From Dictyostelium discoideum (taxonomy: Eukaryota), in NCBI GenBank assembly GCA_000004695.1, contig CM000154.2, forward strand, positions 3,808,001 through 3,872,000: 64,000 bases of DNA, given 5' to 3'. The translations under genes were made by a program, and so were the position numbers. Positions 36,931 to 51,007 of the stretch are shown here, piece by piece (positions within the stretch are counted from its first letter, which is position 1; every line of letters begins with the position of its first letter). Below the pieces are notes generated by a model. The model was given only the letters and a program-made list of their open reading frames with translations. It did not search any database and was not told the DNA's origin.

Positions 36931-37620
36931 ATTTTTAAAAATGTATGTGTAGGGCGAAAAAATAAAAATAAAAATAAAAATAATTTGTTAGTGTAAAAGA
37001 AATCGTATGAAGCCAGGCTCAAATCCAAACCTTTTAAAAATTCAATCTTTTTTTTTTTAATTTTTTAATTTTTTTTAATTTTTTTTTTTATTTTTTGTTT
37101 TTTTTGTTTTTTTTTTTTATACAATTTTTGACAATTACCAGTCAAATTAAACAAAAAAATTTTCCGTGGAAGTATGTGTCGCTTTATTATAAACAAATAA
37201 TACTGGGATTGAAAAATTTACGTTAATAAATAGAAAAAACAATCAAAATAAACGGTTAATTTTTTTTTTTTTTTTAAAAAAGATATTTTTAAACTTCAAT
37301 AATATCAGATCAAAAAACTTCTTCTTTTTCGAAATGTTTGATTTGATTTGATTTATTTACGTTCTCAAGAATGTTTCGCTTAGTTATCAATTTATATTTA
37401 TAGAGCCATAATATAATAATAATAATGCAAAAAAATATTCACAGTAAAATTGAAAAAGCAATTTTTATTTTTATTTTTTTTTCCACAAGAAATTTTTTTT
37501 TTTTTTTTTAAAGAATTTAAATTGTACAAAAACCTTCATTGGTAGAGCCACGCTTTTCAATCACTTTTATATAATAAAAAAATTGAACTCGAGCAGATTT
37601 CAACTAAACAACATCAACAT

Positions 37621-37693
37621 GTCGGGTTGGCTCAGTTGGTAGAGCGTAGGTCTCATAATCCTAAGGTCCAGAGTTCGATCCTCTGACTCGACA
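37621..37693 (+). tRNA. tRNA-Met (anticodon CAT), 73 nt, no encoded CCA
   Basis: Cloverleaf read by hand. Acceptor GTCGGGT/ACTCGAC (one G·T). D-arm GCTC-AGTTGGTA-GAGC. Anticodon arm TAGGT-CTCATAA-TCCTA (anticodon CAT at 34-36). Variable loop AGGTC. T-arm CAGAG-TTCGATC-CTCTG. Box A (TGGCTCAGTTGG) and box B (GGTTCGATCC) are both present. Confidence 0.85.
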
Positions 37694-37726
37694 ATTATTT
37701 TTTCAATAATACTCCTTTAAGATCAA

Positions 37727-47303: not shown

Positions 47304-47512
47304 AAAAAAAAAAAAAAAAAAAAGACACAAATCAAAAACCACCCTATCTTTTATTATTAATAATTATAATTAAGAGAATCACCATCCCCAAAAAAACACA
47401 TTGGAAATATATATATTATATGGATGACAGCATCCAAACAATATTTATAAAATAATAATAATATATTATTTCAATTAAGAAAAAAAAAAAAAAAAAAAAA
47501 AAAACTATCACC

Positions 47513-47865
47513 CAAATTAATTCTTTCAAATAATAAAATAAAATAAAATTTATATATTACAGAATTTTAAATTAATTTATTTTTAAATTTCCAGTTTCTT
47601 TATCAGCACAAGAATAAATTTTGAAGTGATCCAACATAAATTAAATGATAATGTTCAGCTATTTTTTTTTTTTTTTTTTTTATTAAATATATTAAATAAT
47701 TAGTATACATTTTTGTTTTTGTTTTAATTAAAAAAATAAAAATAAAATACACTTACCAACAGTAACAATTTATGTCTAAAATGTAATAAACCAAAATCAT
47801 AATTAAAAATTCCTCTACCCATGAATAATGGCGGTGAAATACCAGTTAGATATTTCAAATTAATT
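47513..47865 (-). pseudogene. degenerate partial duplicate of the 3' end of the downstream DGAT2-family gene (3' flank + exon 3 with internal deletions + intron 2 + ~120 nt of exon 2)
   Basis: 47513..47590 matches 48655..48740, the 3' flank of the real gene. 47591..47660 matches exon 3 but lacks two internal segments. 47745..47865 matches the exon-2 3' end. It translates on the minus strand as …[29 protein letters not shown] versus the real …[29 protein letters not shown]. Homology stops abruptly at ~47866. Confidence 0.55.
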
Positions 47866-47875
47866 GTTCTGGTGC

Positions 47876-48260
47876 TATTTCAAGTGCCACTTCAAATGTT
47901 AAACATTCTCTTAAGGGATGTGATAGTTGTGCACAATACCCAATACCCATGCAACATAATACATAGATTCAGCACTATTTTTTGGAGTTGGAAGACCATT
48001 GGTTTAAAAAAGGGTCCTAATCCATTGCCTCTTAGGATATACTAATTACAGTGAACAACCATCCAACCATGAACAAAAATGCTTATTATGCAATAATGGC
48101 CTTTGTGAAAACGTTAAAGCGGCACTTTAAGATTTGTTGCCACTTTAACGTTTTCTAGAAGACCATAATTGTACAATAAGCCGTTTAATTCTTGATTAGA
48201 TGGTGGTTCAATGTAATTAGAATTTCTAAGGAGCCATGGATTAGAACCCTAGGGTTTTAT
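47876..48260. other. GC-richer (~40% GC) ~385-bp segment of unknown origin abutting the DGAT2 fragment; contains a 17-bp-stem imperfect hairpin (48099..48147)
   Basis: Composition clearly departs from the ~85-90% AT of the surrounding intergenic DNA. Inverted repeat gaaaacgttaaagcggc / gccactttaacgttttc has 1 mismatch and a 15-nt loop. No convincing ORF: the 74-aa ORF 47821..48045 has no recognisable features. No recognised ncRNA motif. Confidence 0.4.
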
Positions 48261-48407
48261 TTTTTTTATTGATGAAATAATTAACATATATAATATCACA
48301 AAAAAAAAAAAAAAAAAATCCGGATTGCCTGTTATATATATTTAATAAATACAAAGGATAGTTATTTCCTGATTTATTTAATATTTTGGTTAATAATTTA
48401 AAAATAA

Positions 48408-48438
<31 letters not shown>

Positions 48439-48719
48439 ATCTTTTATATAGTTTTATAAAAAGTGTCTAAAAAAATATAAAATTGGTGTCTGTCACAATT
48501 TAATTTAATTTTTTTTCAATTTAAAATTATTTCTAATTAATACCAAACAAAAAAAAAAAAAATATCAAAAAAAAAAAAAAAATTAAATAATAAAATATCA
48601 AGATCCCAACCAAAAAATAATAATAATAATAATAATAATAAATAATCATCCAAGTTAATTCTTCCAAATAATAAAATAAAATAAAATAAAATTTATATAT
48701 TACAAATTTTTAAATTAAT

Positions 48720-48875
48720 TTAATTTATTTTTAAATTTCCAGTTTCTTTATCAGCACAAGAATTTTTGTGTTTGTCAAATAAATTTTGAAGTGCTTCAAC
48801 ATAAATTTGATGATAATGTTCAATAACTTGATCAGTAGGTGATTTAATCTTTGGTATATCAATTGGTTCGCCAAC

Positions 48876-48921
<46 letters not shown>

Positions 48922-49913
48922 ATTAGTATATACATTTTTGTTTTTGTTTTTGTTTTTGTTTTTGTTATTATATTTTAAATAAATAATATAAAATACACTT
49001 ACCAACAGTAACGATTTTATGTCTAACTGGTAATAAACCAAAATCATAATTAAAAATTCCTCTACCCATGAATAATGGTGGTGCGATACCAGTTAGATCT
49101 TTGATTTTAGTTTGAATCTTTCTAACTAATGAACCACGTGGATTTGGTACTTGATCATAGATATCATTTTCACCAAATGAATAAACTGGTACTAATGATG
49201 CACCATTTACCAATGCTAATTTAATGAAACCTTTTCTCTTTTTCAATGTAATTTCATTAAGCCCAGGACGGGCGTCTAGTGATTCCTCTGCTCCACCAAC
49301 TACCAAACAAATTGATTCACCAGCTCCTGAATTTAAAATATTTTCACAACTTTTCTTTGAAACTGATGACATACCAAAACTCATTAAAACATCTCTTAAA
49401 AATGGTATCTTAAAAAAAAAAAAAAAAAAATTTATTAATTAGTACTCTCTCTCCCTCTCTAAAATAAATTATAATACATACTTTAAAATTTGATTCTAAT
49501 GTTAATAAATGTACTTTTAAACCAGGTAATTTTTCGTCAATATTATTAGCATTTGTAGCGAAATTACAAAAAGCACCAATACTAATGATACCATGTGGAT
49601 GATAGGCAAAGATGTAATTCTTTTTTGGATCATAATTTGAATTGATAATTAAAGAGATTGGGAAATAATCTCTAAAGTAACGCCACAGTATTGAATTTCT
49701 AACTAAACTTACACGTCTACCACCACTTTCATGTTTTGTATCGAAATAAAACATCCAAACTAAATAAGGTATTGCAATACCCCAAAACAATGGTATCACT
49801 ATTAAATTGAATGCCATTATTAAACATACTGGTAATACCATTGCATAAATTGCAACTGCCATAGTTTCTAACCTTCTATATAATGGAACATTCCATGGTA
49901 CAAACCTAACCAT
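48720..49913 (-). CDS. diacylglycerol O-acyltransferase 2 family (DGAT2/MOGAT-like) acyltransferase, ~330 aa; 3 exons on minus strand: join(49913..49482,49408..49003,48874..48720)
   Basis: Exon 1 MVRFVPWNVPLYRRLETMAVAIYA…NYIFAYHPHGIISIGAFCNFATNANN…LKVHLLTLESNFK carries the DGAT2 HPHG motif and N-terminal TM hairpin; donor GTATGT. Exon 2 IPFLRDVLMSFGMSSVSKKSCENILNSGAGESICLVVGGAEESLDARPG…LVPVYSFGENDIYDQV…, phase-1 donor GTAAGT. Exon 3 (V)GEPIDIPKIKSPTDQVIEHYHQIYVEALQNLFDKHK…. Confidence 0.85.

Positions 49914-50233: not shown

Positions 50234-51007
<774 letters not shown>

Follow-up and report, generated by a model that had tools for sequence, protein, structure and literature searches.

Rearrangements that join a direct partial duplication to an inverted duplication, with filler DNA at one junction, are commonly attributed to replication template switching (fork stalling and template switching, FoSTeS, or microhomology-mediated break-induced replication, MMBIR) or to the repair of hairpin-capped breaks. 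Related comparisons are offered by tandem partial-duplication pseudogenes, by transposons of the foldback and miniature inverted-repeat (MITE) kinds, and by the evolutionarily young long-foldback microRNA (MIRNA) genes of plants and hairpin-RNA (hpRNA) loci of Drosophila. Here we examine an insertion on the 3' side of dgat2, a diacylglycerol O-acyltransferase gene, in a stretch of 64,000 nt of Dictyostelium discoideum DNA; this whole stretch is called the window, and all coordinates are window positions unless another locus is named. The insertion is lineage-specific and ~1.15 kb long, and has given the locus the order dgat2 3' end, ~770 nt of filler, and a second, decaying dgat2 3' end. We estimate a probability of roughly 0.65 that it is the neutral scar left by one complex structural mutation. 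Most probably it is nothing out of the ordinary, but a new instance of known rearrangement products, namely a truncated pseudogene fragment and a decaying palindrome.

The second dgat2 copy resembles tandem partial-duplication pseudogenes: it stands beside its parent in the parent's orientation, keeps an intron and the 3' flank but neither the 5' half nor the promoter, and carries frame-breaking insertions and deletions (indels) that are specific to strains. Unlike such pseudogenes, it does not abut the parent, from which ~770 nt of unrelated DNA part it. With the products of FoSTeS/MMBIR or hairpin-capped break repair the locus shares three elements at one junction, namely a partial duplication in direct orientation, an inverted one around a 13-nt centre, and filler. 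The breakpoint, moreover, lies in a tract of microsatellite-like sequence whose instability recurs independently in sister species, and the palindrome was near-perfect at birth. It differs from the FoSTeS/MMBIR pattern in that no microhomology is readable at the junctions, because these lie in low-complexity DNA. The parts of the locus are the following, in ascending order of window positions; L002 to L005 are four other genomes that carry the insertion, described below.

47506-47571, minus strand: second copy of the dgat2 3' flank, aligned with 48641-48719.
47572-47656, minus strand: pseudo-exon 3, with its stop codon kept, a 17-nt internal deletion, and the 5' 54 nt absent.
47657-47756, minus strand: pseudo-intron 2, shortened, with the GTAAGTG donor kept.
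47757-47862, minus strand: pseudo-exon 2, derived from the final ~106 nt of exon 2 of dgat2, in which 1 nt is deleted and several are substituted.
47863-48010, no strand assigned: single-copy GC-richer segment, called X, ~144 nt with 35% GC, reaching from the pseudo-exon to the palindrome.
48011-48124, no strand assigned: left palindrome arm in plus-strand coordinates of the window, which is the 3' arm in dgat2-sense orientation.
48125-48137, no strand assigned: palindrome centre (loop), 13 nt, asymmetric.
48138-48252, no strand assigned: right palindrome arm, whose outer end in the window strain is ~20 nt shorter than in L003-L005 (arms ~150 nt).
48256-48345, no strand assigned: inverted segment, flipped in the window or AX4-type haplotype relative to L003-L005.
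48346-48640, no strand assigned: AT-rich spacer with 13% GC, part of the filler and present in L002-L005 only.
48641-48719, minus strand: 3' flank of functional dgat2, the first copy of the duplicated unit, ending in an (ATT)n/T-run tract.
48720-49913, minus strand: functional dgat2, parent of the pseudo-copy, with three exons (coding sequence 49913-49482, 49408-49003 and 48874-48720) and a product of 330 aa.

Ten orthologous dgat2 loci (L001-L010) were fetched via members of the DGAT2 protein cluster. L002 is a chromosome-level D. discoideum assembly, L003 and L004 come from other D. discoideum, L005 and L006 from two genomes designated D. cf. discoideum, L001 and L008 from D. citrinum, and L010 from D. 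purpureum. The distance between the stop codon of dgat2 and that of the convergent Nudix gene is 1416 nt in the window and 1417, 1356, 1348 and 1552 nt in L002, L003, L004 and L005, respectively, as against 251 nt in L006, 330 in L001, 240 in L007, 512 in L008 and 399 in L009, all of which have an empty site. The 1431 nt compared between L002 and the window are 100% identical. Among the fetched loci, the GC-richer segment is confined to L002, to L003 and L004 (91% identical) and to L005 (76-82% identical), and the insertion is absent from the second D. cf. discoideum, from two D. citrinum, and from D. dimigraforme, D. firmibasis and D. purpureum. These empty alleles in six related genomes bear out the suggestion of a first-pass annotation of the window, made from the sequence, that a rearrangement or insertion junction is present here.

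A four-way alignment gives the same order of parts in all carriers, which reads, in the sense of dgat2: dgat2, its 3' flank, the AT-rich spacer, the palindrome, X, pseudo-exon 2, pseudo-intron 2, pseudo-exon 3, the second 3' flank, and ancestral intergenic DNA. The constancy of this order indicates that the junctions are genuine and excludes a mis-assembly. Distances computed from dgat2 and 5 kb upstream of it yield the tree ((((L002,(L003,L004)),L005),L006),citrinum...), followed by D. dimigraforme, D. firmibasis and D. purpureum. Since L006 falls outside the clade of L002-L005, a single insertion on the stem of that clade accounts for the whole pattern. In the insertion-free genomes (empty-site alleles of L006 and L001), the 3' flank leads directly into ancestral intergenic DNA, the same that lies beyond the pseudo-copy in the carriers. 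As the L006 allele passes straight from the dgat2 3' flank into that sequence, the mutation took the form A, ~770-nt filler, A', where A stands for the last ~350 nt of the dgat2 unit.

The degenerate copy of the dgat2 3' end extends from ~47506 to ~47862 in the orientation of the parent (alignment of 47490-47900 with 48630-49140). The first-pass annotation had recognized it correctly as about 350 bp of damaged 3' flank, exon 3, intron 2 and part of exon 2, and had let the homology end sharply at ~47866; in agreement with this, the similarity to dgat2 tails off across 47852-47866. The copy lacks exon 1 as well as ~300 nt of exon 2. With homology that includes intron and flank, and with an incomplete coding region that bears lesions, the segment 47506-47862 is a truncated, unprocessed dgat2 pseudogene. 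One of its open reading frames (ORFs), of 44 aa at 47724-47858 on the minus strand, matches positions 213-244 of the Pfam DAGAT family with 20.5 bits, just below the cut-off of 22 bits. The deletions in the pseudo-copy differ among L003, L004 and L005; its indels are clearly unconstrained, which suggests the free decay expected of dead DNA. Pseudo-exon 2 differs between L002 and L005 at only 6 of 96 positions, a small number of sites, as compared with ~20% in the adjoining filler; this may reflect occasional gene conversion from the functional dgat2 ~1.2 kb away, or simply too few sites. No mention of a dgat2 pseudogene in Dictyostelium was found in a literature search. The practical consequences are that the pseudo-dgat2 fragment should not be called a gene in annotation, and that work on dgat2 by homologous recombination in AX4-type strains has to reckon with the 3' end being present again, as a 350-bp copy ~0.8-1.15 kb downstream of the original.

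The filler contains an imperfect palindrome of 242 nt at 48011-48252, which reaches up to ~310 nt in other haplotypes (range 240-310 nt). It makes up the entire right half of the GC-richer segment, a feature overlooked in the first-pass annotation. The segment 48011-48250 matches its own reverse complement with 75% identity over 247 nt (blastn, E 4e-43), and repeat-finding returns the arms as 48026-48124 and 48138-48236 at 77%. Beyond ~150 nt the arms have no significant continuation into X or into the opposite flank. A near-perfect apical stem is formed by 48107-48125 and 48139-48155. This is the 17-bp-stem hairpin that had been placed at 48099-48147 in the first-pass annotation: the stem is real, but lies ~8 nt to the right, and is only the tip of the 242-nt palindrome, so that the hairpin is about seven times longer than was described. 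Folded as RNA, the segment 47990-48270 (281 nt) has a minimum free energy (MFE) of -108.9 kcal/mol on the plus strand (z -11.4) and of -122.0 kcal/mol on the minus strand (z -14.8), equalled in neither case by any of 200 shuffled sequences. The palindrome folds in all four haplotypes, with -121 to -144 kcal/mol.

Segment X is outside the inverted repeat and is kept in position in L002-L005, with strain-specific deletions. The GC content of 47876-48260 is 34.8%, which falls short of the ~40% first estimated and is still higher than in the dgat2 exons (26-33%) or in the window as a whole (mean 22%). In the window haplotype, ~95 bp are inverted at the base of the palindrome (as compared with L003 7560-7626, L004 7590-7672 and L005 7760-7851), and this inversion cost one palindrome arm its outer ~20 bp. 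The inverted segment contains a run of 19 A at 48300-48318, which on the minus strand reads T19-G, is directed at the hairpin, and lies 45 nt upstream of it; the homologous T19/20-G motif of L003-L005 is directed the other way, toward dgat2.

Within the window, the GC-richer segment has no similarity to any other sequence by blastn, tblastx or a nucleotide profile of the arms (nhmmer), in agreement with the first-pass annotation. A diverged or inverted piece of dgat2 was considered as its source and rejected, as Smith-Waterman alignment to both gene strands was no better than to shuffled sequences (z 0.24 and -0.35). A tempting tblastx match to inverted exon 1 (E 0.14; 'SGAISSATSN' against 'IGAFCNFATN') was dropped after the same shuffle test. 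A DUSE-like motif, [AT]CCCA[CT]AA, was sought near 47934-47950, where there is no exact match, as judged by eye.

The eight available arms, two from each of four strains, were aligned in order to follow the evolution of the palindrome. In the ancestor of the carriers, 5 of 120 arm positions are reconstructed as mismatched, which corresponds to ~96% complementarity; the present arms have 27-37 mismatches in about 120-134 positions and are 72-78% complementary. The scarcity of ancestral mismatches indicates that the palindrome was near-perfect shortly before the lineages parted, each of which has since eroded it independently. Mismatches of the G-U type are divided evenly between the sense and antisense strands (8/7, 10/8, 10/7 and 8/8), with no strand bias, and transversions are common. 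Between strains, both arms have changed in 6, 8 and 9 columns, against 6.5, 7.0 and 8.0 expected under independence. The derived changes are AT-biased, at 0.74 per GC site and 0.29 per AT site. Between L002 and L005 the arms have diverged by 19-27%, X by 22% and the spacer by 20%; between L002 and L003 the values are 9%, 8% and 7.6%, respectively. The drift of the palindrome thus looks neutral, and nothing points to selection on the DNA or on any RNA made from it.

Several other explanations of the locus have to be weighed against this one. To an artefact of assembly, such as a chimeric join or a collapsed repeat, we give next to no credence. Assemblers are well known to stumble over palindromes and low-complexity flanks, but the order of parts is the same in the independent and identical L002 and in L003, L004 and L005, three further assemblies that differ by 9-24% and are therefore not copies of one error. 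Very improbable, too, is the reading of the GC-richer segment as an exon that belongs to an unannotated gene. Its GC content is at or above the exon level, and frames of 55 and 62 codons are open in a consensus built from the eight arms; such open stretches are, however, within chance for 236 nt in six frames (p about 0.15, by our own estimate), all six frames contain stops in every haplotype, and the strains differ by frame-breaking indels. No ORF lends support to a gene, and none is annotated between dgat2 and the Nudix gene in four annotated assemblies. Stop-free translations of at least 20 aa in six frames, together with the frames of the eight-arm consensus, found no match at E <= 10 in 5.8 billion protein clusters, transposases included, and exact look-ups of two ORFs of the GC-richer segment returned nothing on record.

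The filler might also be the remnant of a mobile element, either a foldback/MITE-like non-autonomous transposon or the non-coding part of a Dictyostelium repeat, which would have inserted into a duplicated dgat2 copy or travelled with it; this we consider unlikely, though not far-fetched. A body made almost wholly of two inverted arms around a short centre is the hallmark of foldback/MITE elements, and presence or absence that varies between close lineages is typical of transposon insertions. A GC content of 35% is unusual for intergenic DNA of D. discoideum and probably nearer that of its complex repeats. The terminal inverted repeats that define the class are present only trivially, the whole palindrome being an inverted repeat. 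The palindrome ends in L003-L005 show no target-site duplication (with slashes at the ends, the flanks read ...GGTTAT/ATTGG...CCAAT/GGTCTT, without a shared direct repeat of at least 2 nt). No second copy of the filler or its arms was found in the window or in the ten fetched loci of ~13-21 kb from nine genomes, ~130 kb of related DNA, the nhmmer profile search included, and no contig of the JGI metagenomes contains the arm motif (a degenerate motif with 40 specified bases). The palindrome is embedded in a larger insertion of 1.15 kb with a 350-nt direct duplication, which cut-and-paste mechanisms do not make. Among the known elements of this genome, thug-S is a DNA transposon with an intron and not a short palindrome (PMC4894637). 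With no target-site duplication, second copy or transposase-like frame found in these searches, the transposon remnant proposed in the first-pass annotation has no positive support; its captured foreign fragment fares no better, with no protein match, no plasmid match for the filler and, among phages, one 38-nt match at chance level (E 9e-3).

It is quite unlikely, in our view, that the palindrome is a young hairpin-RNA or proto-miRNA locus, that is, that it would be transcribed and diced by DrnB/DrnA into small RNAs, with a start in the window strain perhaps at the T19-G motif of the minus strand. As in young MIRNA/hpRNA loci, a long, imperfect and species-restricted hairpin occupies an intergenic position. 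Its MFE of about -0.43 to -0.50 kcal/mol/nt is within the range accepted for D. discoideum precursors, for which the criterion is < -0.2 kcal/mol/nt (PMC6161686, Table S1). It folds in four haplotypes, with the minus strand consistently the more stable, and there is a slight excess of compensatory pairs at consensus positions. In one haplotype a T-run ending in G (48318-48299, minus strand) precedes the hairpin and resembles, though it need be no more than resemblance, the motif found upstream of 14 D. discoideum pri-miRNAs (PMC6161686, Table S3). The miRNAs of D. discoideum are mainly intergenic and species-specific, with fast gain and loss (PMC11014262). The published precursors, however, are ~105-180 nt long, mostly intergenic, and in many cases preceded by a T-run ending in G (PMC6161686), whereas the palindrome measures 242-310 nt. 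A search of the supplements of PMC6161686, PMC11014262 and PMC4894637 found no fragment of the hairpin among their hairpin and miRNA sequences, and no small RNAs are on record for the palindrome. The miRNA loci listed for chromosome 5 (PMC6161686) are at about 0.17, 0.59 and 4.87 Mb, and the listed mature sequences are absent from the window, which is a comparison of sequence, not of position. Further, the counts of G-U pairs are neutral as to strand, changes in both arms occur at the chance rate, and the hairpin evolves at the rate of the adjacent spacer, none of which is the signature of a constrained RNA. The T-run motif is directed away from the hairpin in L003-L005, and T-runs are everywhere in this genome. 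Unlike the arms of MIRNA/hpRNA loci, those of the palindrome come from no identifiable gene and consequently have no obvious target; the window holds no target-like complementarity. An Rfam scan, as proposed in the first-pass annotation, gave only sub-threshold, hairpin-shaped matches (Rfam 15; rli52 with 30 bits against a gathering score of 70, mir-2001 with 22 against 74): no tRNA or Rfam family reaches the gathering score in the region, in L003 or L005, or, aside from a tRNA-Met gene 10 kb away, in the window.

A more specific version, which we find very doubtful, is that of a newborn hairpin-RNA gene: a fold-back duplication would have made a near-perfect palindrome of 300 nt beside dgat2, and the ~95-bp inversion would later have put a T19-G start motif for RNA polymerase II 45 nt upstream of the hairpin in the lab-type haplotype, with lineage-specific small RNAs as the outcome. 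If this were true, the lab-type strain and not its relatives would transcribe a Dicer substrate, and miRNA-like loci of amoebozoans could be born from rearrangement scars. More generally, a hairpin that is transcribed and diced would show how a small-RNA locus is born among Amoebozoa, a group in which the turnover of miRNAs is rapid.

We return, therefore, to the neutral scar of a single complex mutation. As judged from the architecture of the insertion, the mechanism may have been an event of the replication template-switch or fold-back type at a microsatellite. The mutation would have occurred in the D. discoideum lineage, after its split from the lineage of the D. cf. discoideum genome L006 and before the common ancestor of L002-L005. 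Its probable site is the (ATT)n/T-run tract, itself unstable, that lies ~85-130 nt past the stop codon of dgat2; there ~1.15 kb would have been gained. The gain would comprise ~770 nt of filler, made up of the AT-rich spacer, a fold-back inverted duplication (arms of ~150 nt, centre of 13 nt) and 144 nt of single-copy DNA, and, after it, the final ~350 nt of the dgat2 transcription unit for a second time. Of the two copies, the upstream one presumably remained in the working gene, and the downstream one, without its 5' half, would have been left to decay; the palindrome, near-perfect at birth, would then have been eroded by ordinary AT-biased mutation.

Several observations weigh against this account. 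Searches of the window, the related loci, and protein, plasmid, phage and metagenome sequences found no donor of the ~770-nt filler, and in well-studied cases of FoSTeS/MMBIR the template is usually nearby sequence. The mechanism is read from architecture only, and the junctions lie in low-complexity DNA, with approximate positions. The dgat2-sense strand, which is the minus strand of the window, folds better than its complement by 1.5-14 kcal/mol in all four haplotypes. On the consensus pairs of RNAalifold, there are 5 two-sided changes, compared with 2.0 in shuffled alignments (reached in 7 of 500), and the covariation score is 0.126, compared with 0.100 (2 of 500), both from only four related sequences. 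The excess of compensatory pairs could stem from arm-to-arm gene conversion as well as from selection.

If it is a neutral scar, the insertion carries little functional weight, and its interest would be that of a clean, datable case of complex duplication with fold-back in a genome that is compact and very rich in AT. Sister lineages keep the empty site, and the four diverged haplotypes show the erosion of a palindrome from ~96% to ~75% complementarity within a species complex.

The 3' side of dgat2 has been rearranged in other lineages as well. D. citrinum has a tandem duplication of its own in the dgat2 3' flank (L001 11222-11410; L008 7300-7600), with an (ATT)n expansion of ~300 nt in the second isolate. 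In D. purpureum the Nudix and EFR3 genes are inverted in order and orientation, with a breakpoint immediately 3' of dgat2 (L010 7278-11706, compared with L002 8601-13184). Together with the ~95-bp inversion in the window haplotype, these changes indicate that the 3' side of dgat2 is recurrently unstable and serves as a recurrent breakpoint.

The parent gene encodes a protein of the DAGAT family, whose cluster at 90% identity includes diacylglycerol O-acyltransferase 2 of D. discoideum AX4 (Q54GC1), as well as orthologues from D. citrinum, D. dimigraforme, D. firmibasis and two D. cf. discoideum genomes. At the four-fold degenerate sites of dgat2, L002 differs from L003, L004 and L005 by ~2% (2-3 of ~110 sites), as compared with 7-22% in the adjoining non-coding DNA; either the synonymous sites are strongly constrained, or AT-rich non-coding DNA changes much faster. 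A hypermutation specific to the palindrome, which the divergence of its arms between L002 and L005 might suggest when set beside the 2% at the four-fold sites, was considered and rejected, as the spacer and X are equally diverged.

The convergent gene on the plus strand ends at 47304; its product has a Nudix domain, recognized with 22.6 bits, above the Pfam cut-off. Upstream of dgat2, the gene at 50234-51007 on the minus strand encodes a protein with a long tract of poly-Asn and, at the C terminus, a region that resembles a zinc ribbon. The D. purpureum counterpart of this gene has the Pfam domain Rpr2, of an RNase P subunit, which suggests that the D. discoideum gene may be an orthologue of Rpp21/Rpr2. 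The tRNA-Met (CAT) gene at 37620-37694 on the plus strand, 10 kb from the insertion, is the sole match at the Rfam gathering level or by ARAGORN in the window.

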